Below, one piece after another: positions 9,486 through 64,000 of a DNA stretch of 64,000 bases (positions are counted from its first letter, which is position 1; the number at the start of each line of letters is the position of its first letter). Under the pieces are notes generated by a model that was not told the origin of the DNA, did not search any database, and saw nothing but the letters and a program-made list of their open reading frames with translations. The stretch comes from Mobula hypostoma. Lineage: Eukaryota. A program made the translations under genes and the position numbers. The stretch is taken from NCBI RefSeq assembly GCF_963921235.1, contig NC_086108.1, positions 44,022,001 to 44,086,000 of the forward strand, in the 5' to 3' direction.

Positions 9486-10122
9486 GGGAAACCATGGCTC
9501 TCTGCCAACCCTGTTAAATAGAAGTATATTCAAAGACAACGTGTTAACTAATCCTGCGATGTTATTTCTGAAATATTTTGTCCGTAGTTTCAGACTATCA
9601 TGGTGATTAAAGTTAAATTGTCATATAATTCTTTCAGAAGAGGTATAACTTCACCTATTTTGAGCTTCATTGCCAGATTGATGAGTTCAAAGTCAAGGTT
9701 ATTGTCAAGTGCAATGAAAAACTTATTTGCAGCAGAATCATAGCATCATATACAGTCCTTATAAAAAGTAGTCCCCCACCACCACCCTGGAAGTTTTCAT
9801 GTTTTATTGTTTTACAACATTAAATCACAGTGGATTTAATTTGGCTTTTTTGACACTGATCAACAGAAAAAGATTTTTGTGTCAAAGTGAAGGCAGATCT
9901 CTACAATGTGATCTAAATTAATTACAAATATAAAACACAAAATAAATTAATGCATAAGTATTCACCACCTTCAAGTGCACCTTTGGCAGCAATTACAGCC
10001 TTGAGTCTGTGTGGATAGGTCTCTATCGTCTTTGCACATCTGGACACTGCAATTTTTCCCCATTCTTCTTTACAGAACTGCGCATGCTCTATCAGATTGT
10101 TTGGGAACAGCTTCTTTTCAAC

Positions 10123-10395
10123 TGTGAGAAGACTGCTGAACGGATCCTGACCCGGATCTGGGCTGTACCCTCCAAATATCCGGACCTACCTCTCTGTTTT
10201 TTTGTACTACCTTACTTCCCATTTTTCTATTTTCTATTTATGATTTATAATTTATATGTTTAATATTTACTAATTTTAACTGTTTTTAATATTTTAATAT
10301 TTAATATTTGTAATCCAGGGAGTGTGAAGTGCAGAATCAAATATCGCTGTGATGATTGTACGTTCTAGTACCAATTGTTTGGCGGCAATAAATTA
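10123..10395 (+). mobile_element. Short LINE 3'-end insertion inside the Tc1
   Basis: Interrupts Tc1 sequence; T-rich 3'UTR ending in caataaa, as in Rex1-type 3' ends. Confidence 0.5.
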
Positions 10396-10560
10396 TGAAG
10401 ATTGCATGGGGATCATGTGTGAACAACACTTTTCAAGTCCAGCCACAAATTCTCAAATGGATTTAGATCTGGACTGTGACTTGGCCACTCCAGGATATTA
10501 ACATTGTTGTTTTTAAGCCATTCCTGTGTAGCTTTGGCTTTACGCTTGGGGTCATTGTCT

Positions 10561-11529
10561 ACATAAGGACATAAGGAATAGGAGCAGGAGTAGGCCATCT
10601 GGCCCATCGAGCCTGTCCTGCTGTTCAATAAGATCATTGCTGATCTGTCTGTAAACTCAGCTCCATCTACCTGCCTTTTCCCCATAATCCTTAATTCCCC
10701 TACTATGTAAAAACCTATCTAACTGTATCTTAAATATATTTGGTGAAGAAGCCTCAACTACTTCCCTGGGCAGAGAATTCCACAGATTCACCACTCTCTG
10801 GGAAAAACAGTTTCTCCTCATCTCCATCCTAAATCTTCTCCCCTGAATCTTGAGGCAATGTTCCCTAGTTCTAGTCTCACCTACCAATGGAAACAATTTT
10901 CCTACTTCTATCTTATCTATCCCTTTCAAAATTTTGTATGTTTCTATAAGATCCTCTCCCATTCTTCTGAATTCCAGAGAGTATAGACCCAGATGACTCA
11001 ATCTCTCCTCGTAGGTTAACCTCTTCATCTCTGCAATCAACCTGGTGAACTTCCTCTGCACTGTCTCCAAAACCAGTATATCCTTCCTCAAGTATGGAGA
11101 CCAGAACTGCACACGGTACTCCAGATGCGGTCTCACCAGTACCCTGTATAGTTGCAGCATGACCTCCCTGGTCTTGAATTCAATCCCTCTAGCAATGAAG
11201 GCCAATATTCCGTTTGCCATCTTAATAACCTCTTGTACCTGCAAACTAACTTTTTGCGATTCATGAACAAGCACTCCCAAGTCCCTCTGCACAACAACAT
11301 GCTGCGATCTTTCACCATTTAAATAATAATCTGCTCTTCTATTATTCCTTCCAAAGTGGATGATCTCGCATTTACCAACGTTGTATTCCATCTGCCAGAC
11401 CTTGGCCCAATCACTTAACCTATCTATATCCCTCTGTAAACTCTCCACATCCTCTGTACAGTTTGCCTTTCTACTCAGTTTCGTGTCATCAGCAAATTTT
11501 GCCACTCAGTCCCCTCTTCCAAATCATCA
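10561..11529 (-). mobile_element. CR1 LINE 3' part, relatively young, inside the Tc1 transposase
   Basis: Uninterrupted 282-aa ORF 10657-11505 (KFADDTKL...RPHLEY...FSQRVVNLWNSLP); repeat tail at 10561. Confidence 0.93.
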
Positions 11530-12964
11530 GTAGCTGGTAAACAAATATTTTCCCAAGTTACAGTTCACTTGCGGACTGGATCAGGTTTTCCTCCAGGATT
11601 TCCCTGTATTTTGCTGCATTCATTTTACCATCTACCTTCACAAGTCTTCCAGGGCCTCCTGCAGTGAAGCATCTGCATAGCATGATGCAGCCACCACTAT
11701 GTTTCACGAAAGGGATGGCGTCACTGAAGCTTGAAACTCCTCCAGAGTTGTCATAGGTTACTTGGTAGCCTCTCTCACTAGTCCCTTTCTTGCACAGTCA
11801 GTCAGTTTTAGAGGAAGGCCTGCTCTTGGCAGATTTACAGCTGTGCCATGTTCTTTCCATTTCTTGATGATTAACTTAACTGTACTCCAAGGGATATTCA
11901 GCTATTTGGAAATTTTCTTGTATCCATGTCCTGACCTCTGTTTTTCAATAACCTTTTCACGGAATTGCTTAGAGTGTTCTTTTGTTCTCATGGTGTAGTT
12001 TTTGCCAGAATACTGACTCACCAGCAGTTGGACCTTCTAGATACAGGTGTATTTTTACTATAATCAATTGAAACACCTTGACTGCACACTGTGATCTATA
12101 TTTAAGTAATTATGTGACTTCTTTGTAGAGATCTTTTTTTCACTTTGACATGAAAGAATCTTTTCTTGTTGATCAGTGTCAAAAAAGCCAAATTAAATCC
12201 TCTGTGATTCAATGTTGTAAGACAGTAAAACATGAAAACTTCCGGGGGCGGGGGTGAATGCTCTTTATAGGCACTGTAAGCAGCATTCACAAGAAAACAA
12301 ATAAGCATAATTTATACACATCTTTTTACAAGAAAAGACAATTAGAACAAAACAAACAAGTCCATTTTAGTGGAAAATGATCATAGTGTTGATAAACTGT
12401 AACGATTTTGGTTTTGCTGCCTGGTTCTAGATGTTAATTAGGGGTAATCAGGGAGCATGTGCTTTGTATAGCCCTGGAGTTTTACATATTGTAATGTTGT
12501 TCAACTTCAGTGCCATTGTGAATTAGGAGTACTGTATTGCAGAAGTTCTGTCCTTGCATTCAAAAGTCCTGAAGAATAAAATGCAATAACTGGACATGAC
12601 TGGGATATATGGCACCAATAAAGATAGATACAATGTAATTTAAATAAAAGGGCCCTGCTCAATGCATTAAAGTAGCCAAAACAGTTAAATCACCATTGAA
12701 TAGAGTTTACTGTGATGGATAGAGAGTTCAGTTAATTATTTATGTTGCGTGGCTAGCCATTTGAAATGTAAACTGTGAATGTTGAGGGAATCCCAGTTTC
12801 CTGTTTGTTTTTTTTATTTGTGTTCTATTTACGAGACCTTACTTTCTCATATATAAAATTTCACTTCAAAGATGTATGGTCACTGCTGAACAGTTGGAAG
12901 ATGCAATCAGAGTTGTTGTTTGCCAAGTTTATATAATTAACACAATAATTTTACAATTTTACAA

Positions 12965-23467: not shown

Positions 23468-25033
23468 AAACTTTTCCCCAGGGCCTGATGGTCTGAATCC
23501 CACGGTAGTTAAGGAGGTGGCTCTAGAAATCGTGGACGCATTGGTAATCATTTTCCAATGTTCTATAGATTCAGGATCAGTTCCTGTGGATTGGAGGGTA
23601 GCTAGTGTTATCCCACTTTTTAAGAAAGGAGGGAGAGAGAAAACAGGCAATTATAGACCAGTTAGTCTGACATCATTGGTGGGGAAGATGCTGGAATCAA
23701 TTATAAAAGATGAAATAACGGCATATAGCAGTAGCAGGATAGGTCCAAATCAGCATGGATTTACGAAGGGGAAATCATGCTTGACTAATCTTCTGGAATT
23801 TTTTGAGAATGTAACTTTAAAAATGGACATGGGAAAGCCAGTGGATGTAGTGTACCTGGACTTTCAGAAAGCCTTTGATAAGGTCCCACATAGGAGGTTA
23901 GTGGGCAAAATTAGAGCAAACGGTATTTGGGGTAGGGTACTGACATGGATAGAAAATTGGTTGGCAGACAGGAAACAAAGAGTAGGGATTAATGGGTCCT
24001 TTTCAGAATGGCAGGCAGTGACTAGTGGGGTACAGCCAGGCTCAGTGCTGGGACCACAGCTATTTACAATAAACATTAATGATTTAGATGAAGGGATTAA
24101 AAGTAACATTAGAAAATTTGCAGATGACACAAAGCTGGGTGGCAGTGTGAAATGTGAGGAGGATGTTATGAGAATGCAGGGTGACTTGGAAAGGCTGGGT
24201 GAGTGGGCAGATGCAGTTTAACGTGGATAAATGTGAGGTTATCTACTTTGGTGGCAAGAACAGGAAGGCAAATTACTATCTGAATGGTATCAAGTTAGGA
24301 AAAGGGGAAGTACAACGAGATCTAGGTGTTCTTGTACATCAGTCACTGAAAGCAAGCATGCAAGTACAGCAGGCAGTGAAGAAAGCTAATGGCATGTTGG
24401 CCTTCATAACAAGGGGAGTTGAGTATAGGAACAAAGAGGTCCTTCTGCAGTTGTACAGGGCCCTGGTGAGACCACACCTGGAGTATTGTGTACAGTTTTG
24501 GTCTCCAAATTTGAGGAAGGACATTCTAACTATTGAGGGAGTGCAGCGTAGGTTCACGAGGTTAATTCCTGGGATGGCGGGACTGTCATATGTTGAAAGA
24601 TTGGAGCGACTGGGCTTGTATACACTGGAATTTAGAAGGATGAGAGGGGATCTGATTGAAACATATAAGATTATTAAGGGATTGGACAAGCTAGAGGCAG
24701 GAAGCATGTTCCTGATGTTGGGGGAGTCCAGAACCAGAGGCACAGTTTAAGAATAAGGGGAAGACCATTTAGAACGGAGTTGAGGAAAAACTTTTTCACA
24801 CAGAGGGTTGTGGTTCTGTGGAATGCTCTGCCTCAGAAGGCAATGGAGGCCAATTCTCTGGATTCTTTCAAGAAAGAGTTAGATAGAGCTCTTAAAGATA
24901 GCGGAGTGAAGGGATATGGGGAGAAGGCAGGAAAAGGGTACTGATTGTGGATGATCAGCCATGATCACAGTGAATGGTGGTGCTGGCTCGAAGGGCTGAA
25001 TGGCCTACTCCTGCACCTATTGTCTATGGTCTA
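23468..25033 (+). mobile_element. CR1 LINE, 5'-truncated, young
   Basis: 234-aa and 189-aa RT ORFs; CTATTGT/CTATGGT tail; 8-bp TSD TTAAAGTG (23460-23467 / 25034-25041). Confidence 0.95.
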
Positions 25034-25946: not shown

Positions 25947-28610
25947 TATCCTTATAGAGGGATCAGAAGTGGAGAGAGTGAGCAGCTTCAACTTCCTGGG
26001 TGTCAAGATCTTTGAGGATCTAACCTGGTCCCAACACATTGATGTAGTTATAAAGAAGGCAAGGCAGCGGCTTTACTTTATTTGGAGTTAGCAGAGATTT
26101 GTCATGTCAACAAGTACACTCAAAAACTTCTATAGTTGTACCGTGGAGAACATTTTGACAGGCTGCATGACTGTCTGGTATGGAGGGGCTGCCACACAGG
26201 ACTGAAAGAAGCTGCAGAAGGTTGTAAATCTAGTCAGCTCCATCTTGGGTACTAGCCTACAAAGTACCCAGGACATCTTTCGGGAGCAGTGTCTCAGAAA
26301 GGCAGTGTCCATTATTAAGGACCTCCTACACCCAGGGCATGCCCTTTTCTCACTGTTACCATCATCTAGGGCAGTGGTCCCCAACCACCAGGCCGTGGAC
26401 CGGTACCAGACCGCAAAGCATGTGCTACTGGGCCGCATGGAACCGATATGAGTCAACTGCACCTTTCCTCATTCCGTCACGCCCACTGCTGAACTTGAAC
26501 GCACGTGAGGTCATTACCCACACGAGGACATCAGTTGGTCATTAACCTACAACTACTCGATGAGTGAAAAACAAATGTTGCTTGAGAGTTTCTTTGGAAG
26601 AGATGGCAGGGGAGATAAAAGGCCTAACAATGATGATAATGCGGAGACAGCTGGTGCCGAGACTGCAAAAACAAAGAAAGCTTCCTTCAACAGAAAATAT
26701 GACGAGTCGTACATAAAATATGGCTTTATTGTGACCAGTGACTTGCACGCTCCAAGCCCCCTGTGTGTGATATGTGGAGACAAGCTGTCTAATGAGGCAG
26801 TGAAGCCCTCAAAACTGCTTCAGCACCTTGAGTCCAAGCACCTGCACTTAAAGACAAACCCATTGAGTTTTTTGAGTGGAAAAAATGTGATCAAGCGGGA
26901 CAGAAGCAAGTGCAGAGAGCCACCACCTCCACAAATGCTGCTGCTCTGAGAGCATCGTACTTAGTGGCTAGCCGTATTGCTAAGGCTAAGAAGCCTTTCA
27001 CTGTTGGTGAAGAATTGTGCCGTGAACTGCTGGGAGAAGTTGCAGCTAACAAGGTGGCACAGGTTTCTCTTTCAGCTGCCACAGTTTCAAGGAGAATCGA
27101 TGACATAGTGGAAGACATCAAAGCACAGCTGTTGGAACGGCTTATTGAGTCTGGTTTCACTACCCAAGTCAAAGAGGTTGCTCCTGAATGCCAGTCTACA
27201 CACTGTGTTACACCCAGGGAAATGCTGGCTAGCCGAAAACTGTCACCTGATCTTAACAGTGTATTGAGTGACGTTGTTGAAGTTATCAATCACATCAAAG
27301 CAAAGGCCCTTAACTCACGTCTGTTTGAGCAGCTTTGCGAGGAAATGGATCAGAGCACAAACGCCTTCTCTTACACACTGAAGTCAGGTGGCTATCAAGG
27401 GGGAGAGCCCTGGCCAGGGTTTTTGAGTTAAGAGAGCAGCTACAGAGATTTCTTTCAGGAAAAAACTCACCACTGGCAGCACACTTCAGTGACGAGTGGA
27501 TAGCAAAACTCGCTTATCTGTGTGACATCTTCAACCTGCTGAATGAACTCAATTTGTCACTTCAGGGGAGAATGACAACTGTCTTCAAGTTGGCAGATAA
27601 AGTGTCTGCTTTCAAAGCCAAACTGGAACTGTGGGGATGGCGAGTGGACATGGGCATATTTGACATGTTCCCAACATTAGCTGGGAATTTGGGAGAGACT
27701 GAGGCTCACAGCTGGTGCGCGATCACCTATCTTCGCTGTCGACAGAATTCGAGCGTTACTTCCCAACCGTAAATGACCCAAGCTGTGCAAAGGAATGACC
27801 CAGTTGTGAACGTTCCTGGTGAATCATCCATGTCAGCGCGGGAAGAAGATCAATTCCTTGAGCTCGCAAATGACGGTGGGCTGAAAAGTATGTTTGACAT
27901 ACCATCTCTGCCGGCATTCTGGATCAAAGTCAAGGCTGAATATCCTGAGATAGCCACAAATGCGCTGAAAACTTTGCTTCCATTTCCGACATCATATTTC
28001 TGCGAAGTGGAGTTTTCTGCAATGAATGCAATGAAAGCTAAATTGCGGAATAGACTGGACATAAGGAACTCCCTTATGACTTATAATTGACTTACCACTA
28101 TATCCACGCGAGGAAAATATGCATTGTGTGTTAAATATTAAATTCGTTAGATAAACCCTTTCAGAATCAAAATTGAGTGTATTAGCCACTTATAGTGACT
28201 TATAGTTGACTTATCATCTATATTCCGGTCATGATTAACAACCCCGCTGGTTGGCCGGTCCGCAGTGCAAAAAAGGTTGGGGACCCCTGAGCTAGGAGGT
28301 ACAGAAGCCTGAAGGCACACACTCAGTGATTCAGGAACAGCTTCTTCCCTCTGCCATCCGATTCCTAAATAGACATTGAATCCTTGGACACTGTCTCACT
28401 TTTTTTAATATACAGTAATTCTGTTTTTGCACATTTTTAAAATCTATTCAATATACGTAATTGATTTACTTGTTTATTTATTATTATTAGTTTTATTTTA
28501 TTTATTGTTTTTTCTCTCTGCTAGATTATGTATTGCATTGAACTGCTGCTGCTAAGTTAACAAATTTCACATCACATGCTGGTGATAATAAACCTGATTC
28601 TGATTCTGAT
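25947..28610 (+). mobile_element. Rex1 LINE 3' part, interrupted by a hAT
   Basis: EVERVSSF.FLGVKI, TLKNFYSCTVE, HPGHALFSLLPS; resumes at 28298; AATAAA plus (CTGATT)n tail. Confidence 0.88.
26372..28289 (+). mobile_element. hAT transposon, Charlie/Buster group, internally deleted
   Basis: 15-bp TIRs CAGTGGTCCCCAACC / GGTTGGGGACCCCTG; degenerate 8-bp TSD atcTAggg / agcTAgga; RKYDESYIKYGF, C..C...KPSKLLQHLESKH, TEVRWLSRG, LAYLCDIF, LLPFPTSYFCE motifs across frameshifts. Confidence 0.93.
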
Positions 28611-30499: not shown

Positions 30500-30786
30500 G
30501 TAAGTTTTTTAATTATTCTGTTTTCTTACTTTACCTTAATTCTGTACTATAGACCCTTCGGTAGCATTTCCCAAATGAAAGGTTAATCTTCCTTCATCTT
30601 TGGAGGTTAAGATCCAACAAGCTGTACCTCTTAAGAAGCATGGAGGTGTAAATGAATTGATAGAAAGGTTCATTGCTATTCTTTGTTGTCGCAATTGCAT
30701 CAAATAGTTTTAGAACAATTGGCAGACCTCTCTAATATCACTGACGATTGAATCATTGGCATATAATTTTAGCAAAATGAATCATC

Positions 30787-31861
30787 GATACCATACAGCC
30801 CTCATTGGTGGGGGAGAAGCTCCGTTCAATGCCAACTGGCACCTCCATTGTATCCTGGATAATGGACTATCTGACTGGGAGACCACGGTATGTACTGCAC
30901 CAGAGCTGTGTGTCAAACATGACTATAAATAGCACTGGACCCCCACAGGGGACTTTAGTGGCTCCCTTCCTGTTCACCCTGTATACCTCGGACTTTAGAT
31001 ACAACACTAAGTTATGTCATCTGCAGAAATTCTCTGATGACTCAGCCATAGTTGGGTGTATTAAAGAAGGACAAGAGGATGAATACAGGGCCCTGGTGGA
31101 GGACTTTGTCAAATGCTGCAAGCTGAATCATCTGCAGCTGGACAGTAGTAAGACAGTAGTGCTTTAGGAAGACCAAGCCTGCATTGCTCCCTGTTGCTAT
31201 TGATGGTGAGGACATGGATGTGGTGAGGACCTACAAGTACTTAGGGGTGCACCTGGATGACAGACTTGAGGGGAGCACCAGCTCAGAGGCTATGTACAAG
31301 AAGGGCCAGAGTCACCTCTACTTCCTGAGGAGACTGAGGTCTTTTGGAGTATGAAGGCTTCTCCTTCACATGTTCTACAAGTCTGTTGTTGTCAGTGCAA
31401 TCTTCTTTGCAGTGGTGCGCCGGGGCAATGGCATCAACACAGGTGATGCCAACAGGCTCAATAAACAGATTAGAAAGGCTGGCTTTGTTACTGGAGTTAA
31501 ACTGGACACATTGGAGGCTGTGGTAGAACAAAGGACCCTACGGAAAATCCTGGCAATTTTGGACAACATTTCTCACCCTCTGCATGGCACCTTGGCTGAA
31601 CAGAGGAGCACTTTTATTAATAGACTAAGATGACTGCGCTGCTCCAAAGAGCGTTATATGAGGTCATTCTTACCCTCGGCCATTAGGCTTTATAATGAAT
31701 CAACCAATAGCTGTGGAAGTGATGACCCCCTCCTGTAAGACTGTTTGTAGTAACTTATTTTTTATTCTTTCTACTTCTTTTCTAATATTTCTGTCTGTGC
31801 AATTGTAATGCTCCTGTGACACTGTAATTTCCTTTGAGATCAATAAAGTATCTATCTATCT
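30787..31861 (+). mobile_element. Rex1-clade LINE 3' part (second subfamily)
   Basis: WIMDYLTGRP, TGPPQGT..APFLFTLYTSDF, QKFSDDSAIVG; AATAAA plus (TATC)n tail. Confidence 0.88.
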
Positions 31862-35585: not shown

Positions 35586-38166
35586 CTCCGGATTTGGTAC
35601 CGGTGAATGAAGGATATTAGTCCGATTAGATAACAGAATAATTTGCATGGATTAGGGTATCCAAGTGCACAAGCCACTAAAAACTAGCACATGGGTACAC
35701 AGATCAGTTAAAAAGCCAAATGAAATGTAATCTTGTAATTCACATTAGAATTCAGAAATGAGTTTGTTGACCTCAGTTCTATTGAGTTTCAATCAAGCCT
35801 CTTCTAGTACATTTTGGATGCTGCACAGCAGTGAGAATATTTTGGCTGTCATGGAGTTACTGATGTTTCAGCAAAATCTACCAGGCTCAAAGCATGACAT
35901 TATGAGAACAACTTGCACAAACTTGGCTGGCATCCTCTTGCGCTTTTGGCTTACGAACACTGGATCAGGAATGGCTCATATCACATTTGCCTACTCTGCC
36001 TTCTAATGTTACTTTGGCTGATCCTGGATCTTAGCTATGTTTTCATGCACAAAAATCATCCAGTCTCTATTATGATTAAGTTCAAAAGTAGTGTATCCAC
36101 AGTTCTCCGAGTCAGAATATTCCAATGAGTCACAGTCCTCTGCAGTACCTTTCCTTGGTGGAATCCAAAATGCTGTACCAAGTCCCCTTCATACTAGATT
36201 CTCCAGCCAGAGGAAGTAGTATCTCATAATATCTATTCTGTCAGACTCCCTCAGAATCTTGACCACTTCCCATATTACTGAGCTCCACAGTGAGTGCACA
36301 TCCATCCAACTCTGGCTCACCCTAGTGCAGACTGCAGTTAGACACATCTATCTCAATACTCCACCTTATATCTCCCTCTTTTTATCTCAATATTGCATTG
36401 GTTTACAAGCTTTCTGCTAAAGTGGAGAACAAAATGTTTCAACCTTTGTTGCCAGTAATAATAATTTCTTAGTTCACAATAATTAAGAAGAAAGAGAAAA
36501 ATATTCTCAAAACTCTATTAATTCAAGAATTTCCCTTTTCTGGTACCATGTGGACTGTGCTGTATATTAATCTTTGCTAAATTGTCCTGTTACCAGTTCC
36601 CTAAAAACTGAACTCTAGCCCATTTCTGACTATTGGAGCCAGATTACCTGGACTATAATTTCTATTCATTCACCCTTTTCAGTGACCCACATTGGAGTAC
36701 AATGTGATACTCTCCCTTCCAGTCAGCACCAATAAAGCATGACAGCCTTAAGGATCCCCAGTCATTAACAATGTGCACCCTATCCCACAATATTCATTTT
36801 TACTCCCACAATTAAATGCTTTCATAGTGATGATGTCAAATTGCCCATGGTCTCTGCATTCTTTGTTGTTATTCTTATGGGTTCCAAGTTCTTACCTATT
36901 AACCAGTGTCTCACTGAATCCTTCATTTCTAAATGTACCTGACTGCAAGTAATATCTCTTGAGCATGACCATTAACTAAACAGTAACTACCACCTAAGAT
37001 GTCGACTTACTGGAGTAAATTATTCCAATAATTCCCTATACAACAACCAGCCCTCCCCACCCAACCCAACCCACCAGCTCCCAAAGTATGCAAATATTTT
37101 TAAATACCTGGGATCAAACTGGCCACCTCAATCTCTCACAATACCTTTGACTTATTGCAGTGATAGCAATGACAGTGGGACCCACTAAAGGAGATAAGCT
37201 ATTACTTATTTATGAACCCCAGAGCAACTTTACAATTAAAGCTATTGGAAGGTTCATTTATTATCAAAATATGTATGCAATATACAACTCTGAGATTCCT
37301 CTTCTCCAGATAACCACAAAACAAAGAAAAACCATGCAGTAAGTTCACGACAAACAGCAACCCCCCCCCCCACACCCGCACAAAAACACATCAAGAACAT
37401 TGGCATCCAAAATATCTGGCATAATTTTTTTTTCCAAATAAATGGCTTTGAAAATCTGAGATTCTCTCCTCTGAGGCTATGTATGCCCTTTGGAAAGCAG
37501 GTAAATGGTGTGTGTTGAAGATCACTGGATGGGTTAAAAGTGCAAGGTATTGAATAACTGAATCCTGGCACAGAGCATTCGGTATCAGAAATAATACCGC
37601 AGCATTACAGCAAATAACAGAACCATGAGGACAGCAAATTAGTGCAATGGAGTTAGATTTGCTGCTGTAATATGTTAGCAATATCAAATTGGAATCAGAT
37701 ACAGTGGATTTATACCATGCAAATAGACACTGGTGTTTGGAAATTAGATCACAAAAGCTAGTTTCATCCTAGCCTGAGACACCAATAGATATGGGACAGC
37801 AAGCTAAGATGAGCCAGTAATTCTCTGTGAGCTGAAGTTGGAATCTGCATTTCATTGATGGCACAGGATCAGAAACCTTTGTGGGGAATGCCAATCAAAA
37901 ATTAACATGAAATCCTTTCTTTGAGTATGGTGGACCTTCATCAGACCATACTTAAAAAGACTTTCTCAATAATAATAAGTTTTAGATAACTACCTGAGTA
38001 CAATAACATATTGATCTATACGATTCAAAAACTGAGTTGAATTTCAGATTATTTTATTACTTGAAATAAAATGAGCTGATGTTTCCCCGTTGTTCCATTT
38101 TACTGAGATGCTAACTTCAAGGAACAGAGGAATACTGCTAACTTCACTACACCATGCACTTTGTAG

Positions 38167-38262
38167 GTATTCCATTTTTCCCTTGCGGAGGATGATGTTA
38201 CAGATCTAAATGGAATGCATGATGGCCGACATGTGTCCTGGGATCCTACAAATATCGAATAA
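38167..38262 (+). CDS. AKR terminal exon A (proximal)
   Basis: ctttgtAG acceptor, phase 0; VFHFSLAEDDVTDLNGMHDGRHVSWDPTNIE then TAA. The assembled protein resembles, from memory, the vertebrate 'ZK1290.5/YtbE-like' uncharacterized AKR group. Confidence 0.92.
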   Translation, partial: VFHFSLAEDDVTDLNGMHDGRHVSWDPTNIE

Positions 38263-38671
38263 TGTATGTCAAAATTTTATTCACACTCAGTTTCGTAATA
38301 GATATCAGATGTTCATTCTTTTGATTTATACAAATTGATATTATGAAAATACTTTAGGGAATATTTCAGCAGTAATTCAACAAAATCATCACATACCAAT
38401 GCCATGAACAGACCTCATACACAAAGAATTTTTAATTTTATGTTTCTGCTGGAGATTTAACTAGTGGCTAGTATCATAGAATTTCTGCATGTCATGAATA
38501 CTGTAGATCATAGAAAGGTATTTCCATTTATTTGGTGCCCTGTTGCATTGAACCTAAATTTTTAAATCCCAAACCAGTGTTTTAAAATTTTTAAATGTTA
38601 AAATAACTTTGCTTATAAAGAACTGAAGGAACTAAATACAATACTTATTATCTGAACCTATTGAGACAAGA

Positions 38672-38742
38672 AATAAAAGCAGAACAAAACTTTTGAATGT
38701 AAAGTAAATAAAGTTACTAAAATCATGAAAGCATGAAATAAA
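38672..38742 (+). promoter_or_regulatory. Candidate polyadenylation signals for isoform A
   Basis: AATAAA at 38672, 38707 and 38737, about 0.4-0.5 kb after the exon A stop; region is AT-rich so chance occurrence is possible. Confidence 0.45.
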
Positions 38743-38848
38743 ATCAACTCTGCATATTTGAAAAATGTTCAAGATGATTACCCTTGGAAACATAGAAGAT
38801 CTTAACCTCAAATTAACTTGGTACATCTCTGATATATATACACACACA

Positions 38849-40313
38849 CAGTTGAAGTCAGAAGTTTACATACACTTAGGTTGATGTCATTAAAACTCAT
38901 TGTTTAACCACTCCACTGATTTCATATTAGCAAACTATAGTTTTGGGAAGACGTTGAGGACATGTACTTTGTGCATGACAGGAGTAATTTTTACAACACT
39001 TGTTTACTGACAGATTATTTCACTTTTAATTGACTATATCACAATACCAGTGGGTCAGAAGTTTACAAACAAAATCAAAAGAAATCAGCCAAGACCTCAG
39101 GAAAAAAAATTGTGGACCTCCACAAGTCTAGTTCATCCTTGGGGGCAATTTCCAAACGCCTGAAGGTACCACGTTCATCTGTAAAAACAATAGTACGCAA
39201 GTATAAACACCATGGGACCATGCAGCTGTCATACCGCTCAGGAAGGAGACGCATTCTGTCTCCTAGAGGTGAACCTACTTTGGCGCGAAAAGTAGAAATC
39301 AATCCCGGAACAACAGCAAAGGACCTTGTGAAGATGCTGGAGGAAACAGGTAGACAAGTATCTATATCCACAGTAAAATGAGTCCTATATCGACATAACC
39401 TGAAAGGCTGTTTAGCAAGGAAGAAGCCACTGCTCCAAAACTGCCATAAAAAAGCCAGACTACAGTTTGCAAGTGCACATGGCGACAAAGATCTTACTTT
39501 TTGGAGAAATGTCCTCTGGTCTGATGAAACAAAAATTGAACTGTTTGGCCATAATAATCATCGTTATGTTTGGAGGAAAAAGGGTGAGGCTTGCAAGCCG
39601 AAGAACACTATCCCAAACGTGAAGCACGGGGGTGGCAGCATCATGTTGTGAGGATGCTTTGCTGCAGGAGAGACTGGTGCACTTCACAGAATAGATGATA
39701 TCACGAGGAAGGAAAATTATGTGGATATATTGAAGCAACATCTCAAGACATCAGCCAGGAAGTTAAAGCTCGGTCACAAATGGGTCTTCCAAATGGACAA
39801 TGACCCCAAGCATATCTCCAAAGTTGTGGCAAAATTGCTTAAGGACAACAAAGTCAAGGTATTGGAGTGGCCATCACAAAGCCCTGACCTCAATCCGATA
39901 GAAAATTTTTGGACACAACTGAAAAAGCGTGTGCGATCAAGGAGGCCTACAAACCTGACTCAGTTACACCAGTTCTGTCTGGAGGAACGGAACAAAATTC
40001 CAGCGACTTATTGTGAGAAGCTTGTGGAAGGCTACCTAAAACATTTGACCCAAGTTAAACAATTTAAAGGCAATGCTACCAAATACTAACAAACTGTATG
40101 TAAACTTCTGACCCACTGGGAAAGTGATGAAAGAAATAAAAGCTGAAATAAATCATTCTCTCTACTATTTGACATTTCACATTCTTAAACTAAAGTGGTG
40201 ATCCTAACTGACCTAAGACAGGGAATGTTTTCTAGGATTAAGTGTCAGGAATTGTGAAAAACTGAGTTTAAATGTATTTGGCTAAGGTGTATGTAAACTT
40301 CTGGCTTCAACTG
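38849..40313 (+). mobile_element. Sleeping Beauty-like Tc1 transposon (IR/DR type)
   Basis: Ends CAGTTGAAGTCAGAAGTTTACATACAC / GTGTATGTAAACTTCTGGCTTCAACTG-TA; inner DRs at 39050-39070 and 40096-40116. Confidence 0.96.
39072..40089 (+). pseudogene. SB-like DD34E transposase pseudogene
   Basis: KSKEISQDLR...GRRR...WSDETKIELFG...MDNDPKH...SPDLNPIEN...KGNATKY; ATG lost, +1 frameshift in the A-run at 39102-39109, TGA stops at 39379 and 39649. Confidence 0.95.
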
Positions 40314-40315
40314 TA

Positions 40316-40400
40316 TCTCCCTCTCCCTCTCCCCTCCCCCTCCTCTCTCTCTCCCTCCCTCTCCCTCTCCCTCTCCCCTCCTCCCTCTCCCTCCCCCTCC
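40316..40400. repeat. C/T-rich low-complexity tract
   Basis: (CTCC/CT)n polypyrimidine run directly after the Tc1. Confidence 0.85.
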
Positions 40401-40419
40401 CTCCTCCAAACCCCCCCCC

Positions 40420-41610
40420 ATCTCGGGAGACAGACCATTCATTGACATCTTTTACAAAAACCTACTGACTCACAATTATCTTGATAGCCCTTCCCAATTT
40501 GCAAAAATACTATTCCTTTCTCTCATTTCTTCTGTGTCTGTCACTTCCATTCTCAGGGTGAAGCCTTCCATTCTAGAACATCTGAGATGTCCTTTCAAAG
40601 AATTGGTTTTCTCTTCCACCACCATCACTGCTGCCCTCATCCACATCTCCTCCATTTCTCACACATCTCACCCCACCTTCCCACTGTCAGAACCGAGATA
40701 GGGCTCACCTTGTTCTTACTTACCACCCCAGAAGCCTCTATATAAAACACATCATTCTCCATAAATTCTGCAACCTCCAACAAGGTCCTACCACTAAACA
40801 CATCTTTCTTTTCCCCCTCCACTTTCTGTAGGGATTGCCCTCTTCCTAACCCCTTTGTCCACTTATCCCTCCCCAATGATCTCCTTCCTCATGGATCTCC
40901 CTCCCTGCAAGTGTGACAAGTGGTACACTTGTCCCTAAACCTCCTCCTTCACCACCATGAAGTTCTTCCAGGCGCAGCAACATTTCTGCTGGGAGTTTGT
41001 CGGAGTCATCTGTTGTAGCCCATGCTCCTGGTTTGGACTCTTCTTCACTGGGTAGGCCTGATGCAGATTGGGGGACAAGTTTGTCAGGCACATTTGTCTG
41101 TCACAAAAGGCAGGATCTCCAAGTGGCTACCCATTTCGGTTTGACTTCCTATTCCCATTCTGCCATGATGAGGCCATACTCAGACTGGGGAAGCAACACC
41201 TCATATTGCACCTGTGTTTCTTTCCTCTCTTTTTCCATTCCCTGGTTACCCTCTCAGCCCTTCTCTCCACCTGCCCATCACCTCCCTCTGGTTCCTTTCC
41301 TCCTTCTTTACCCTTTACGTCTTCAAACTATTGCCTTCCAGCTTCTTACTTTAACTCCTCCCCCCATCCACCTTCCCCCCTCACTAGGTTTCACCTATCA
41401 CCTGTAACCTGTTCTCCTTCCTTTACCCCAACGATTTTATTCTGGCCTCTGTCCCCTTGTTTTTCTTTCTAGTCCTGATGAAGGACCTCAGCCCAAAATG
41501 TTGACTGTTTAATCCTCTCCATAGACGCTGCCTGACCTGCTGAGTTCCTCCTGAGTTATTTTGTATGTATTTTTCAATATTTCCAGCATCTGCAGAGTCT
41601 CTTGTGTTTA
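40420..41610 (+). mobile_element. Penelope-like element, decayed, with terminal repeat
   Basis: Collinear with 51525-52661; degenerate hammerhead agtc-ctgatga-agg...ccc-aaaa-tgtt-gact near 41471-41506. Confidence 0.85.
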
Positions 41611-42922
41611 AGATTTTATCAATAGAAGTGTGTCAGCATCAGGCAGGACACAAGTAAATTTATATTGCTTATTGACAGGTTTTAGAGGCCACTTATGATA
41701 AAGTACTAACTGAGGCTTTGCAGCGCACCCCCCCCCCCAAACATTAATATGTAAGGAATCTGAAAAAGGCTTTCACCATAATTTAATGTGAGTTCAAATA
41801 TGACTGCTGAATAGATAAAATTAGTAATGTGCTTGACCATAAAGTGGCATTCATCGGTATTCAGCTTGTCTTCATTAAGCTACTAGCAGGGGTACAGCAA
41901 TTGACTTCAAAGCATAGAAAAATTCTTAACTGTCAAATGTAATAAAAAACTAATTTCAACACATTTTCTTCAATTTTCCTTCTGGTTGTTAGTTAATGCC
42001 ATGATTTCTTTACTCTTGTGTATTAATGCCTGATCTCTTAACCTTCACTAATGTGGCCCAGATGAAAGTAGAGCACAGTGGTACACTTATCAAAGACATC
42101 TTCCCACTCCTTTTGCTGGTTGATGCTAAAAATAGTCAGCTATAGATAAGAAAAGAGACTTGTGATATAAATGCTTTTCTCCCTGTAATAAAGACTAAGT
42201 TGTATTTTAATAATGGTCTTTAAAACGGTGAATGGTTTTAAAAGACTTTACTTGATTGAAGATGCAATGAGAAGGAAGTTATCATTAACTTAAGATGCAT
42301 ACTGAGAGTGAGGAGGGAGGTTAGGAGAAATTTCTTTACATCAGAGCTTCCAAACTCTCTTGCTGTGTCCCACTTCAGGGAGACTAGGTTTTGGTGGAGT
42401 CATACCCATTCCTTATACAGTGGAAGATAGTTAATTATTGGACTTCAGCCATCTCAACCCTGGCATATTAATGCAGGTGTTCTTCAGGACAGTTCAGTGA
42501 GACAAATCATCTTTGGGTGTTTCACCAGTGTCATTTCCACCCTGAATTGGGCTCATAAATAGGAAACAACATTCTCACTACTGTACTCAGGTGCTTGGCA
42601 GTGGCCATTACTCATTAGCATCTCTAGCTTTGCTGCTATCAACACTTTCAGTATCACCATTGACCAGAACTCAACCAGAACAGTCATGCAGGTACTGCTT
42701 CACTGACAGCATTTCAGAAGTTAGATACCTTGCAATAAGTGACTCATCTTCAGCTGCTGACATCTTTTCATAACCTGCATGGTGCAATGTAACTGTGTGA
42801 TAGGATACTCCTCTTGCTTGGATGAGTGGAACTCCAGCAACAGTTAAATTTGACATATTCCACGAAAAAGCAGTACACTTACTTCCCACCCCATCTACCA
42901 ACTTAGTTATTCACTCTTTTGA

Positions 42923-43670: not shown

Positions 43671-45242
43671 TATTGCAGGCTCTACCATCAATATGAGGAA
43701 CAGATTCCTGGGAACGCCAGTGCCCAAACATGCAGCAAGCCAAGAATATATTATCTTGTTGGGTCTAGATCCACAAAAGCATTGTGGGTCTATTTTTCCA
43801 TGAGCATGACAACAGCACTTCAAGAGGTGACTCACCGTTATCTTTTTGAGGACAATTAGAGATGGACCGTGAAAGCCAAAAAAAAATTATGCTATAACTG
43901 CAGCATAAAACAGCTACATCTATACTGCATGAAATACAAAATGTTTTGAAGTCTGATGTTTTAGGGATTTTACGAATTCCTTGAAAATTTGTTTTTGGGA
44001 TTACAATGTCAAATTTTGGTCCATTAAATCAGTTTTTCATTTGACCTTCTAAGCAGTTAATTCTGCTGGTTAACTATTTAACCAAATAGCAGGTGAAAGA
44101 AGGAGCTTGTAGCTGAGTGAGACTGAAAGTAAATATCTTTCAGTTTAACCGTCTATGCTAACAACATCCTGAAGTCTTATTTAGAAGTATCAGTCGTTGC
44201 AGATTTTGCTTTCTAATCTCAGTAAAGTTGCAGATATACAGATGAATATATTCTCTTGTATTACTTAAATAAAACCCTTTAGAAGAATGTTATGGATGTC
44301 TCAGAGATTGTTATATCACTTTAGATTTTAAGAAACAAAGTAGCCAATATATGAATAAACCACATAATATACCTTTGTTGTATAATGGCCAAATTAAGAA
44401 TATGTGAACCACACCCATGAAGAATCAATGGCTTTTTTCAGTTATGTCTGGTCTCAATTTATTGCATATCTGAGTTAGCACAAAATGTGCAGTCACTCAG
44501 ACCGTTAACATCCTGCCTTTATCATGAGAAGGACAATATATTAAAAAGCCACACCTAAACTGTTACAAAAGAAACCCAAATTTCACACATTTCTATAATA
44601 CAATTGATAAACAATGGCAGAGTCAGACAACCTTCACAAAATACAGTATTACAATAATAGAGAGAGAGGAATAGAAGAAAGGAGCTTTACTTTATAGCAG
44701 CAGTGTCACCAACAATGCTCTGACCTAGAATACCAGCGTGTGACTCCACACTCAGACATGCTTTCACAGGAGTTGCTGACCAGAAATGTGATATAGTTTC
44801 ATACTGAGCGTCACCTGGTATACTGAGGGCCAGCAGCAGACTAGATGCAATAACTCAAAATATCTCTGCCATTCAACAAGATTGTGGCTGGTCTACCACC
44901 TGAAAATTTCTCTGCCCTCCCTCCCCCTCCCCTCAGTCCTCTACTGTCCAGGTCTATCAATTTCAGTTTGAATGCAGACTGAGCCCACCCTCCGGGATAG
45001 AGAATTCCAAAGATTTACCACTTCTCTTCATTTCAGTCCGAGGTGCCATACATCATACACCTTATTGTGCAAAACTGAGCCTTAGTCCTAGACTCCTCAG
45101 CCAGGATAAGCAACACCTCCCTCCGCCCTGCCCCCCAGATTTACCCTTTCAAGCCTCCCACGGAGGTTACATTGTTTTAGTAATTAAATAGAAGCCCTAC
45201 TTGCTCAAATTTCTCCTCATCTCCTTACTGGTCTTACAATTT

Positions 45243-45968
45243 CAGAGGATATGTTCTGGGCCCAGCATGTAAGTGCAGTTACAAAGAAAGCATGGCAGCG
45301 CCTCAACCTCCTTAGAAGATTGCGTACATTCATCATGAAATCTAAAACTTTGACAAACTTCTATAGATGTGTGGTGGTGAGTATGTTGGTAGGTTGCATT
45401 ACAGCATGGTATGGGAACGGCAATGCTCTTGAATGGAATATCCTCCAGAAAGTAGTGGATGCTGCCCAGTCCATCATGGGTAAAGCCCTTCCCATCATTA
45501 CGCATATCTACACGGAGCGCTGGCGCAGGAAACTAGCATTCATCTTCAAGGACTCCCACCACCCAGACGATCTCTCCTCTTACTACTGCTATCAGGAAGA
45601 AGGTTCAGGAGCCTCAGGACCCACAACACCAGGTTCAGGAACAATTAGTACCCTTCAGCTACCAGGTTCTTAAACCAATGGGGATAACTTCCCTCAACCT
45701 CACTCACCCCATCATTAAACTGTGCCCACAATCTATGGATTCACTTTCAAGGACTCTTCATCTCATGTTCTCAATATTTATTGCTTACTTGTTTATTATT
45801 ATATTATTTTCTTTTGTACTTGCACATTGGTTGGTTGTCCATCTTGTTGGGTGTGGTCTTTCATTGATTCTATTGTGTTCCTTGGATTTATTGAATATGC
45901 CACAAGAAAATGAATCAGGGTTGTATATTGTGACATATATGTACTTCAATAATAAATGTACTTTGAAC
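45243..45968 (+). mobile_element. Rex1 LINE 3' end
   Basis: KKAWQRL..LRRLR.F...KTLTNFYRCVV.SML.GCITAWYG; ends aataaatgtactttgaac. Confidence 0.88.
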
Positions 45969-46481: not shown

Positions 46482-47700
46482 GACACACACAATTCTGGAG
46501 GAGCTCAGCAGGCCAGACAGCATCTGTGGAAAAGAGCACAGTCGATGTTTTCGGGCGAGGCCCTTCAACAGGACTGGAGAAAAAAGCTGAGGAGAAGATT
46601 TAAGTTGGGGGGGGAGGGGAGAGGGAAACACCTGGAGGGGGAGGAATGAAGTAAAGAGCTAGGAAGTTGATTGCTGAAAGAGACAGAAAGCCATGGAAGA
46701 AGGGGGGAGGAGCACAGAGGGAGGCGATGAGCGGGCAAGGAGATAAGGTGAGAGAGGGAAAAGGGGATGGGAAATGATGAGGGAGTGGGGAAGAGGGCTG
46801 TGGGGCATTACCAGAAGTTCGAGAAATCAATGTTCATGCCATCAGGTTGGAGGCTACCCAGACGGAATATAAGGTGTTGTTCCTCCAACCGAAGTGTGGC
46901 CTCATCACAACAGTAGAGGAGGCCATGGATAGACATATCGGAAAAGGAATGGGAAGTGCAATTAAAATGGGTGGCCACTGGGAGATCCTGCTTTTTCTGG
47001 TGGACAGACCATAGGTGCTCGGCAAAGCGGTCTTCCAACCTACATTGGGTATCACCAATTACAGGAGTACCGGGCACAGTATGTGACTCCAGCAAACTCA
47101 CAGGGAGTGTCACCTCACCTGGAAGGACTGCTGAGGATCCTGAGCGGTAGTGAGGGAGGAGATGTAGGGGCAGGTGTAGCACTTGTTCTGCTTGCAAGGG
47201 TAAGTGCTAGGAGGGAGATCACTGGGGAGAGATGAATGGACAAGGAAGTTGTGTAGGGAGCAATCCCTGCAGAAAGCAGGGGTGGGGAGAGGGAAAGATG
47301 TGTTTGGTGATGGGATCCCGTTGGAGATGGCGGAAGTTACGGAGAATTATATGCTGGATGTGGAGGCTGGTGGGGTGGTAGGTGAGAACAAGAGGAAGTC
47401 AATCCCTGGTAGGGTGGCAGGAGGATAGAGTAAGAACCGATGTGTGTGAAATGGAAGAAATGCGGTGGAGGAAGGGAAGCCCCTTTCTTTGAAAAAGGAG
47501 GCTACCTCCTTTGTTCTAGAATGAAGAGTCTCATCCTGAGAGCAGATGCAGCGGAGATGGTGGAATTAAGAGAAGGGGATGGTGTTTTTACAAGTGACAG
47601 GATGGGTAGTCCAGGTAGCTGTGAGAGTCCGTGGGTTTATTATAGCCATCAGTGGGTAAGCTGTCTCCAGAGATAGAGACAGTGAGATCGAGAAAGGGGA
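46482..47700 (-). mobile_element. Penelope-like element 3' part with terminal repeat
   Basis: RLEDRFAEH...PVATHFN...RLEEQHLIFRLGSLQPDGMNIDFSNF; degenerate hammerhead at ~46540-46575. Confidence 0.88.
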
Positions 47701-49943: not shown

Positions 49944-51524
49944 CATTTCTGTAGCTGCAGCATGATTGTTTTTAGAATTTAGTACCTTCTGTTTTTCTTG
50001 CATCAGTACTTTAACTTCTAATTTTAATACTTGACAGAACATGTGCAGAAACAACAGGCCTCCAAACTTTTAAGCTCAAAATGCAAACTGTACAAGCTTG
50101 ACATACAATAAGAAGAATAGTTTTAAAAACCTAAACCCAAAGTCATCAAGCCCTCTCAGGTGGGAACAGATCATGCTGAACAGGTTATCTAGCATCTGGA
50201 GAAAGAGAAAGAATTAGCATTTTTGGTGAATAACCAGTCATGAGAACTGCAGGAAGTTAGAAATGGATAAGTTGGAGAAGCAGAGGGGAAAGGCAGATAG
50301 AACAGAACAGTATAGTGAAGTACAGAACAGGAGAGGAGTTGTTTCCCTCTGACGAATTTAGGCCATATTGTTCTCAGGTGCCTGTTGCTAGGTACTCTGG
50401 GGGACAATTAAGATCTAGCCTTGTAATACCAACCTAGAGGCCTGTAAAGCATATAAAATACTAAGCCAACCCCTCAGCAACTACAGCCCACTCAATTCTT
50501 TATTAACCCTAGCAATAAAACTAAACAGCACCACACTCAAACTAGCTTCCTGGCTGGTGCATACTCTATTCTCCCTCAAAAGCCTTTATGCACATCACTC
50601 AACCCTTGACTATGAACTTGAACTACCAACCAGTCAGCCACCTCACCACCAACAACATAGCCAGAAAGCTGTAATTCTTTCCCCAAAAATAAAAAAAATC
50701 TAGTAAGCTTTCCCCTCTACTACGCTTGCCTACATACAGGAAGATTGCAGATGTTAACTTTTTTCCTTCACCACCCAACTCCTCCACCACATTAAGTGTA
50801 GAAGCCTCATAAGTAACGACAGAAGAGAACAAAATTATTGTTTTTATCTTCCTACACATTACATCGAAGCATTTCCCATGACACTAATTTAAGCATTAAA
50901 CATTTCTGCATTCTGAAATTCAAATATGGAAACTGAAAAACTGTAGTTACTGGTCCCTCCAGAACTTCCTCTTTTAAGTACTGATAGATAAAATGTTATA
51001 TAAAATGTTGTAATATGATCATTGAGAACTTAGGCCATCAGGTCCTCCAGGTGGTTAGCAAGTTAGACATAATCAGAAGTTTAAACATGAGCGGTATTAG
51101 CGAGCTTATATACTGAAGCTAGCATATCAAATGTTGCATGCATCAACTGCACCAGCATGTGTCCCAAACATGTTGAATCCAAAGTCCTTATTCTCTCATG
51201 GGTGGATTATGTGCTGTCTCTTTCAATACCATTTTGATAATGTCGCTGAAGTTTTAAAATGAAACTTAGAAAGTTCTCACATGATGCAGGGAGGATGTTT
51301 CCCCTGGTTGAGGAGCCTCGTCCCGGAGCCACAGTCTCAGAGTGAGCAATCAGCCACTGAAAACTAACATGAGGCAAATCATCTTTCGTCAGAGCATGGT
51401 GAATGTTTGAAACTCTCTGCTGTGGAGGCTCAGTCATTTGGTCTTTTAAAGAGAGATATTGATAAATCTGAAATATGATGGGAATTGAAGGATAAGCAGC
51501 AGGCAATCAGCGGTCCGAAGTGTG

Positions 51525-52661
51525 AGAAGACATAGCTCATCCTGCTCCCAGGATGAGGCTTTCCGTTCCATGACATCTCAGATGTCCTCTTTCTTTAAGG
51601 ATTGTGGTTTCCCTTCTACCATCATCAATGATGCCCTCACCCGCATCTCCTCCATTTCCCGCACTTCGGCCCTCACCCCATCCTCCCGCCACCACAACAG
51701 GGACAGTGTTCCCCTTGTCCTTACCTACCACCCCACCAGCCTCTGGATCCAGCACATTATTCTCCGCAACTTCCGCCACCTTCAACAGGACCCCACCACT
51801 AAGCACATCTTTCCCTCTCCACCCCTTTCCGCTTTCCGCAGGGATCGGTCCCTCCGTGACTCCCTTATCCACACGTCCCTCCCCACGGATCTCCCACCCG
51901 GCACTTATCCCTGTAAGCATAAGTGCTACACCTGTCCCTACACCTCCTCTCTTGCCACAATTCAGGGCCCCAAACAGTCCTTCCAGGTGAGACAACACTT
52001 ACTTGTGAGTCTGTTGGGGTCATCTATTGCATTCGGTGCTCCTGGTGCAGCCTCCTCTACATCGGTGAAACCCGACGCAGATTGGGGGACCGCTTCGTCG
52101 AGCACCTCCGCTCCGTCCGCCACAACAGACAGGATCTCCCAGTAGCCACCCACTTCAACTCTGCTTCCCATTCTGATATGTCCATACGTGGCCTTCTCTA
52201 CTGCCATGATGAGGCTAAACTCAGGTTGGAGGAGCAACACCTCATATACCATCTAGGTAGTCTCCAGCCCCTTGATATGAACATAGAATTCTCCAACTTC
52301 CGGTAATTCCCTCCCCCTCCCTTCCTCTATCCCTATTTCACTCTGCCCCTCCCCCAGCTGCCTATCACCTCCCTCATGGTTCCACCTCCTTCTACCCATT
52401 GTGTTTTCCCCTATTCTTTCTTCACCTTTCCTGCCTATCACCTCCCTGCCTCCCCTCCCCCACCCCTTTATCTTTCCCCTTACTGGTTGTTCACCTGGAA
52501 CCTACCAGCCTTCTCCTTCCCACCCTCCCTCCACTTCTTTATAGGGCTTCTGCCCCTTCCCTCTACAGTACTGACGAAGGGTTCCAGCCCGAAACGTCGA
52601 CTCATCATTTCCACTGATGCTGCCTGACCTGCTGAGTTCCTCCAGCGTGTTGTGAGTGTTG
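51525..52661 (+). mobile_element. Penelope-like element 3' part (best-preserved copy)
   Basis: GIY-YIG endonuclease GVIYCIRCSWCSLLYIGETRRRLGDRFVEH; VPLVLTYHP linker; polypyrimidine 3'UTR; terminal repeat. Confidence 0.92.
52567..52602 (+). ncRNA. Minimal type I hammerhead ribozyme motif (predicted)
   Basis: AGTA-CTGACGA-A-GGGttccagCCC-GAAA-C-GTC^GACT; intact core, one helix I mismatch. Confidence 0.65.
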
Positions 52662-63139: not shown

Positions 63140-63425
63140 TAAACCTCCACTTTATATATACTCAATGACTTGGCCTCCACAGACATCTGTGGGAATGAAT
63201 TCCGCAGATTCACTATCTTCTGGCCAAAGAAATTCCAATTTATCTCTGTTCTAAAGGAACATCCTTCTAATGCTGTGCCCCCTGGTCATAGACACTCCCA
63301 CCATTGGAAACATCCTCTGCACATCCACTCTATCTAGGCCATTCAATATTTGGTAAATTTCAATGAAATACCCCCCATCCCATTCATATAAACTCCAGTG
63401 AGTACAGGCCCAGAGCCATCAAACA
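63140..63425 (-). mobile_element. CR1 3' fragment
   Basis: ttggcctccacag...gaattccgcagattcactat...ggaaacatcctc, antisense of the CR1 ORF2 end. Confidence 0.75.
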
Positions 63426-63436
63426 CTTTTCACCTG

Positions 63437-64000
63437 GACTATACATTTTCCCACTTTGTCAGTTGTAAAAATGCCATCCCCCTCTTTCAATTCCTCAGTC
63501 TCCACCACATCTCCTCTCAGGATGAGGCTTTTTCATTCCAGAACTAATGAAATGTCCTCCTTCTTCAAAGAAAGGGTCTTTCCTTCCTCCACCATCAACG
63601 CTGCTCTCACCTGCATCTCCTCCATTTCGCACATGTCTGCCCTCACCCCATTCACCTGCCACCCCACCAGGGTTCCTCTTGTCCTCACCTACCACCCCAC
63701 CAGCCTCCGCATCCAGCACATAATTCTCCGTAACTTCCACCATCTCCAGCAAGGTCCCATCACCAAGCACATCATTCCTTCTCCCTACTCTCCACAGGGA
63801 TTGCTCCCTATCGGACTGACTCCCTTGTCCATTCATCCCTACCCACAAATATTCCTCCTGGTACTTATCCTTGCAAGCGAAATAAGTGCTACACCTGCCC
63901 CTATACCTCCTTCCTCACTACCATTCAGGGCCCTAAACAGTCCTTCCAGGTGAGTGACACTTCACCTGTGAGTCTGTTGGGGTCATCTACTGTATCTAGT
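63437..64000 (+). mobile_element. Penelope-like element, runs off the window end
   Basis: EMSSFFKERVFPSSTINAALT...VPLVLTYHPTSLRIQHIILRNF; collinear with 51540-52030. Confidence 0.9.

Follow-up and report, generated by a model that had tools for sequence, protein, structure and literature searches.

The stretch of 64,000 nucleotides of DNA analyzed here (the window) contains, at positions 38849-40313 on the plus strand, a decayed, near-full-length copy of a Tc1 transposon belonging to the Sleeping Beauty (SB) clade, and the host is best read, from the LINE content of the surrounding sequence, as a ray, likely a myliobatiform. Horizontal transfer is very probably the correct explanation for the presence of this SB copy in such a host. 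The complete history proposed here, in which an SB-clade family moved from a non-salmonid bony fish into a ray ancestor, multiplied there and then decayed in the absence of selection, also appears quite probable as a whole.

The reference for all comparisons was L001, an intact, TA-flanked element of 1,639 bp with a 340-residue ORF, which was recovered from metagenome contigs. The scan of these contigs yielded three SB-type loci (L001-L003) among 80, with L002 differing from L001 at 12 of 1,638 sites. The L001 ORF and the transposase of the vector pT2/Gene-Trap share 98.8% identity, and L001 is termed salmonid-type because, as judged by eye, its first ~340 coding bases are the same as those of the SB entry for Hucho hucho in Jia et al. 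The window copy begins with CAGTTGAAG at 38849 and terminates with CTTCAACTG at 40313, all its features being on the plus strand. Its left IR/DR (38849-39070, 222 bp) comprises an outer DR and a clipped inner DR, and its right IR/DR (40090-40313, 224 bp) an inner and an outer DR, with a 4-bp deletion after 40169. The earlier impression that the likeness to Sleeping Beauty extends into these non-coding ends is confirmed by identities to L001 of 87.8% on the left and 95.1% on the right. Repeat finding recovered two DR cores per end, ~195 bases apart, at 38857-38874 and 39054-39071 on the left (94% alike) and at 40095-40110 and 40288-40303 on the right (100% alike), with the left and right cores being mutually inverted. 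The first-pass annotation had listed all four DRs as present; three of them are indeed whole, but the left inner one is partial, being clipped by a 171-bp deletion whose junction lies at 39070-39071 and which, in a global alignment to L001, takes away the last part of the inner DR together with the 5'UTR and ATG. The target of the insertion was an (AT)n tract. On the left, the target-site TA (38839-38840) ends this tract and is followed by four CA units that precede the element end (TA and spacer together occupying 38839-38848); these are likely to have arisen by slippage of the terminal CA or by decay of the TA tract. The contig from organism B (see below) is gapless over 38839-38848. On the right, the target-site TA (40314-40315) is intact and adjoins a pyrimidine-rich simple repeat.

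The transposase pseudogene (39071-40089) corresponds to about residues 3-340 of SB, spanning the PAI and RED subdomains, the KKPLL linker and the DD34E core, and is 94.0% identical to L001 at the DNA level and 87.4% at the protein level. Its main frame is open from 39106 to the stop at 40087-40089 save for two internal TGA codons, and its first residues lie in another frame. As claimed in the first pass, the codons of the catalytic triad (39523-39903) are all intact, namely D153 (39523), D244 (39796) and E279 (39901), with DD34E spacing. The resemblance to Sleeping Beauty is borne out by measurement: three open pieces of the pseudogene match only Sleeping Beauty structures in the PDB (5CR4, with E-values of 1e-74 and 9e-48; 2M8E, 6URS and 5UNK), the Pfam domains HTH_SB, HTH_Tnp_Tc3_2 and DDE_3 are all detected over their cut-offs, and the copy as a whole is 93.2% identical to L001. 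The triad, the TIRs and the TA (intact on the right and displaced by the four CA units on the left) are the features of Tc1/mariner DD34E elements. The lengths of the IR/DR ends, the four DR cores (including the clipped one) and the CDS identity to L001 are those of the SB clade, which has been defined by CDS identity of over 80% within the clade and IR/DRs of about 200-250 bp with two DRs each (PMC9777934); Tc1 elements with long ITRs have been described as having this IR/DR layout (de Boer et al. 2007, PMC2198921).

In the global alignment the window copy and L001 differ by 99 mismatches over 1,464 aligned sites and by three gaps, comprising the 171 bases lost after 39070, one base gained after 39099, which causes a frameshift, and four bases lost after 40169. 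In-frame TGA stops are found at 39379-39381 and 39649-39651. The copy had been described as having few disabling lesions: the deletion of the ATG and 5'UTR, the frameshift and both stops are all as stated, but the word "few" understates the decay because the right IR has also lost 4 bp and the protein, apart from the two stops, departs from that of L001 at 41 residues. Over 338 codons, dS relative to L001 is 0.075 (the upper 95% bound of pS being 0.115) and dN is 0.057, giving a dN/dS of 0.76 that does not differ from 1 (Fisher p 0.34), and CpG decay amounts to 12/29. With an absent ATG, a frameshift, two stops and a dN/dS near 1, it qualifies neither as an autonomous nor as a domesticated element; it is a neutrally decaying fossil that is unable to make transposase. 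The differences from L001 are unevenly distributed, with 27/222 in the left IR and 72/1,242 elsewhere (p 0.001); 18 of these 27 are transversions and, among the rows listed, at least 7 of the 27 are private to the window copy.

The nature of the host is indicated by CR1 fragments, which account for 10,458 of the 64,000 bases of the window and have their best matches in batoid proteins. In a comparison with 29 chosen proteins, drawn from chondrichthyans, birds and turtles only, the top-ranked protein in 11 CR1 bins of 1.5 kb was chondrichthyan in nine and from a turtle in two, and identity to turtle or bird proteins reached at most 62%. The CR1 near 24,000 is 90% identical over 178 aa to a protein of Hypanus sabinus and 82% to one of Mobula hypostoma. 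For the CR1 ORF at 10657-11505 the best named matches are from batoids, sharks and chimaeras (59-64%), followed by birds and turtles (about 47%), with no teleost name among the 120 matches listed of 412. No host exon was identified among 26 window ORFs compared with Pfam (the window having 469 open frames), which gave mobile-element-type matches only, and the reading of the host is hence based on the LINEs. This lack of a host gene in the 26 ORFs is what might be held in favor of a ray-finned host, in which the element would be quite ordinary; such a host is very unlikely given that the CR1 elements are nearest to batoid proteins and that CR1s are reported to be absent from most teleost lineages, with Rex1 being richest in rays among others (PMC13343379). 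The premise of the first-pass annotation that the host is not a teleost is accordingly upheld by the CR1 LINEs.

If the element had been inherited vertically, it would have had to persist across a split of about 473 My, as given by Zhang et al. 2020 (PMC7070016) along with a mean vertebrate synonymous rate of 3.1e-9 per site per year. Based on these published rates, rather than on host genes, vertical descent predicts a dS of about 2.9 (2 x 473 My x 3.1e-9), far above the 0.075 observed, and even a tenth of the mean rate on both branches still predicts 0.29. The teleost branch by itself should saturate synonymous sites. Low rates of substitution in chondrichthyans (PMC10787021), such as the 7e-10 per site per generation reported for sharks (PMC10587355), might be invoked to argue that the element descends from the jawed-vertebrate ancestor and was kept by domestication or slow evolution. 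This explanation is extremely improbable: similarity to L001 is as high at synonymous sites and in the non-coding IRs as at replacement sites, the ORF is broken with a dN/dS near 1, and the 2022 survey of Jia et al. (PMC9777934), in the text available, lists one mollusc and 107 ray-finned species as SB hosts but no chondrichthyan. In their screen for transfers, Zhang et al. asked that the Ks of a TE, on at least 100 codons, be under 0.5 and lie below the 0.5% quantile for core genes, with at least five copies per clade, a patchy distribution and empty orthologous sites. The Ks of 0.075 on 338 codons falls within both absolute limits, and copy numbers of more than five per clade are indicated by the dozens of contigs in the runs described below (X1 and X5) and by the many salmonid copies. 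The original proposal of horizontal transfer is thus strengthened by dS, by the identity of the non-coding IRs, by the CR1 evidence on the host and by a junction found in two organisms, to which we now turn.

The words of a 6-kb stretch are shared to 82-84% by four sequencing runs of organism A and to 42-46% by three runs of organism B, the two organisms being closely related and most likely rays. Four runs were mapped on 37049-42148, namely X1 (organism A), X5 (organism B), and X8 and X13, which were taken from a set with small word shares (X8-X20). Both X1 and X5 gave a left-flank contig that ends at 38869, 21 bases into the IR, and that differs from the window at 0/1,569 positions in X1 and 16/1,563 in X5; a formal bridge asked for 31 element-side letters. 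The right junction, where the simple repeat was skipped, is unbridged, and no listed contig spans the element in the mapped runs. The flanks differ at 47/3,077 sites between organisms A and B and the insertion site is filled in both, with no empty orthologous site being seen. Because the contigs end at the same point in both organisms, which come from separate studies, they indicate a shared insertion that is older than the A/B split. Inside the element, summed depth over 8 bins reaches 149-8,165x that of the flank in X1 and 267-9,281x in X5, which is not a copy number. The abundance of SB copies in salmonid data, their occurrence in metagenome assemblies (L001-L003) and the shortfall of both junctions from a formal bridge would all be compatible with a teleost contaminant or a misassembly having placed a fish SB copy into a ray assembly. 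The left junction in two organisms and the depth of about 150- to 9,000-fold that of the flank nevertheless make contamination unlikely, to the point where hardly any weight can be given to it: the flank-to-IR contig end recurs in different samples, studies and years, the depth is hundreds to thousands of times that of the flank in both organisms, and the family letters at 39991, 39992 and 40001 are unlike those of X8 and X13. With regard to the misassembly or contamination envisaged in the first pass, the evidence thus consists of the left junction, with 21 element-side letters, and not of the right one.

The depth points to an element family of thousands of copies in the host, and dozens of distinct contigs per site are present in both X1 and X5. 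In runs X8 and X13 the element is covered, with L001-type letters and with the 5'UTR missing from the window copy, but the unique flanks are not. Among the 40 best-supported of 154 difference rows, a choice which likely favors private changes, 35 are private to the window copy, with the majority in A/B agreeing with L001 (including at the stop at 39651); the A/B majority agrees with the window copy against X8/X13 at three and differs from both at two. The 35 private rows imply that the A/B family stood closer to SB than the window copy does. The distance between the family and the salmonid elements is only bounded, by 5 sites seen and at most 64 of the 99 differences; extrapolation of the 35/38 private sites to the entire element was rejected, as the rows shown are selected. 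The five longest paralogous contig pieces differ from the window copy by 10.5-14.6%, or about 6% per copy, and the burst would therefore be roughly eight times older than the A/B split, an estimate that may be too high because long unique contigs favor divergent copies. As an order of magnitude, this would correspond to an age of ~20 My at the mean vertebrate rate, and more at shark-like rates.

Two further peculiarities of the family were seen in the mapped runs. In A/B, the depth over the last 340 bases (39939-40278) is 2.5-6x that of the rest of the coding part and 35-55x that of the interior of the left IR (38919-39088), a skew that is far weaker in X8 and X13 and that could stem either from a non-autonomous right-end derivative or from the 85% likeness limit acting on the diverged left IR. 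At 39627 and 40197 the window copy has the salmonid-type letter and another letter is found in over 98% of the A/B depth, which might reflect multiple subfamilies or waves of the element there.

As regards its closest relatives, the window copy has 31 residues in common with L001 as against a five-protein Sparus/Prochilodus/Coilia/Logan set, and 7 in common with that set as against L001. At positions where the salmonids changed, it shows Q133, L143, A230, F303, P312, A313 and E317, as well as a G at the synonymous site 39114; the derived salmonid states L303, H312, P313, G317 and A at 39114 are absent. Across 181 retrieved proteins, residues 303-317 have the pattern LHPG in 98 and FPAE, the pattern of the window copy, in 33, of which the 12 listed are 83-86% identical to L001. 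In File S2 of Jia et al., counting exact 17-letter matches only and reading species from abbreviations, the G at 39114 is found in 23 non-salmonid SB entries, including two eels and Beryx (alfonsino), and the A in nine, from eight salmonids and one pike. The supplement contains coding sequences truncated at 400 letters, and the lack of any match to a left-IR motif in it is therefore uninformative. Visual comparison of these 400 coding bases shows additional ancestral letters common to the window copy and the entries of tarpon, eel, alfonsino and tuna. N309 of the window copy occurs in none of the 17 other rows displayed. A careful tree was computed from 15 rows, with 22 of 37 being left out; it unites the window copy and the salmonid group with support of 65/76, does not reject two other placements (p-AU 0.23 and 0.16), and weakly rejects a pairing of the window copy with L001 inside the salmonid group (p-AU 0.044). 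The clade of window, salmonid and Sparus/Prochilodus elements has support of 100/99 against four more distant rows, and the root is left unresolved. An import from salmonids was rejected on the grounds of this p-AU of 0.044, the missing salmonid-derived states and the retained non-salmonid ones; the absence of the former and retention of the latter thus point to a sister lineage of the salmonid elements. Marine and diadromous teleosts appear from these sequences to be among the near kin of the ray element.

Parsimony favors a transfer into rays, because all the named relatives that were retrieved come from ray-finned fishes. No ray-named SB protein occurs among 78 matches, nor among the 120 listed of 138, and none is seen over 87% identity. 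This all-teleost neighborhood may in part be a sampling effect, as protein databases hold few dead ray elements, which weakens the case for this direction. Rays might alternatively have acted as donor or bridge to the subclade of salmonids, eels and tarpons, or there might have been parallel invasions from a third host such as a parasite. The ancestral states at seven residues and one synonymous site where the salmonids changed would fit such scenarios, and a basal place in the subclade is compatible with the tree tests. With paralogous contigs at the above distances from the window copy, the burst in a slow lineage could also predate that in salmonids, which has been placed at over 10 Mya (de Boer et al., PMC2198921). 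Nonetheless, they are unlikely in view of the fact that all named relatives, near and far, are ray-finned, that ray-finned fishes take part in 93.7% of the 975 vertebrate transfers inferred by Zhang et al. (PMC7070016), and that the eel, tarpon, alfonsino and tuna entries share the ancestral states, so that a teleost source exists.

Under the preferred reading of a transfer into rays, an active SB-clade element from a bony fish lineage outside the salmonids would likely have entered the germ line of an ancestral ray, and the family would then likely have multiplied to thousands of copies by insertion at TA sites. In SB/Tc1 elements, transposase bound to the four DRs cuts the element out and reintegrates it at TA, AT repeats being preferred targets (Jia et al., PMC9777934); cut-and-paste amplification is presumed in the present case because it is established for SB and Tc1. 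The copies, including that in the window, would subsequently have decayed without selection as the family died. A wider and rather speculative scenario, which we consider doubtful, is that rays, along with eels, tarpons, tunas and alfonsinos, were the marine hosts in which the SB lineage radiated before it entered salmonids, with rays holding its oldest and slowest-decaying record and maybe serving as a reservoir, and that transfers of this kind add up to the known excess of Tc1/mariner DNA that rays and skates have relative to sharks.

These observations may be compared with several known systems. The transposase of the window copy is 86.5% identical to the vector protein of Sleeping Beauty (SB10/SB11/SB100X; AFR53956.1), and has in common with it and with the natural salmonid elements the DD34E triad, IR/DRs with four DR cores and a TA target in an AT tract; unlike these, it is dead, is likely to reside in a ray and lacks the salmonid-derived states. 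The SB entries of Anguilla, Megalops, Beryx and Thunnus (PMC9777934) belong, by eye and over the first 400 coding bases, to the same subclade as the window copy. A precedent for a teleost-type IR/DR Tc1 element in a chondrichthyan is provided by the ZB-like family of Callorhinchus milii, with at least 100 full copies; it differs in being from another clade (SB and ZB having 52-54% CDS identity) and in a chimaera rather than a ray (PMC9777934). The Tc1 transfer between teleosts and lampreys (Kuraku et al. 2012, PMC3516227) likewise combines high identity over a deep vertebrate split with subsequent neutral decay, but involves the DTSsa1 family, with 95-99% identity and a link to parasitism, and the PCR reported there was negative in cartilaginous fish.

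The window contains several other repeats. A second, different Tc1 element lies at 9753-12276 on the minus strand, with CAGT ends, TA on both sides and 34-58% protein identity to SB; it is interrupted by an inserted CR1 of ~960 bp (around 10560-11520) and by another insert near 10190-10390, and may be another candidate for transfer. At about 26372-28289 on the plus strand there is a ~1.9-kb element with 11-mer inverted ends at 26376 and 28285 and four overlapping ORFs (26509-28090) that have no match in Pfam; we take it to resemble hAT-Charlie/Buster transposases. Copies of a repeat with a weak GIY-YIG match, presumably Penelope-like, are found at 40400-41640, 46800-47230, 51489-52630 and 63400-64000, and the highest depth of the mapped region is seen near 41470-41640. 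LINE fragments at 1767-2938, 30781-31167 and 45188-45673 are assumed to be of the Rex1/Babar type. Rex1 elements are reported to be plentiful in rays and to be transferred frequently (PMC13343379).

No report of SB in a ray was found in the literature, with subscription papers, repeat databases, Table S1 of Jia et al. and bioRxiv supplements being outside the scope of the search. In the tree of Zhang et al. the chondrichthyans are represented by Callorhinchus and Rhincodon only (PMC7070016). Tc1/mariner content has been given as 3.28% in skates, 2.30% in rays and 0.14% in sharks (PMC12361510); the accessible text of that study leaves horizontal transfer unmentioned and names SB only as a general subcategory. 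The available portions of a preprint on manta and devil ray genomes (10.64898/2026.10.27.761883) have no passage on Tc1 or TcMar, and those of Muller et al. (10.1101/2024.12.18.629015) none on cartilaginous fishes. Plasmid and phage collections contained no match to the element. The suggestion that a consensus of the family could supply natural SB variants loses much of its appeal, and the value of such a consensus looks small, because most of the lineage-level residues also occur in the Sparus and Prochilodus elements.

The transfer of Tc1 elements among fishes is common, there is a precedent in a chimaera and the copy itself is dead, and in this sense the finding adds a new host to a known process. 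Within these bounds, the element of salmonids is seen to be one twig of a wider SB group, and SB transfer offers an explanation of why skates and rays have more Tc1/mariner sequence than sharks. The family behind a widely used gene-transfer tool is thereby extended to the cartilaginous fishes, a group that has been nearly missing from surveys of horizontal transfer.
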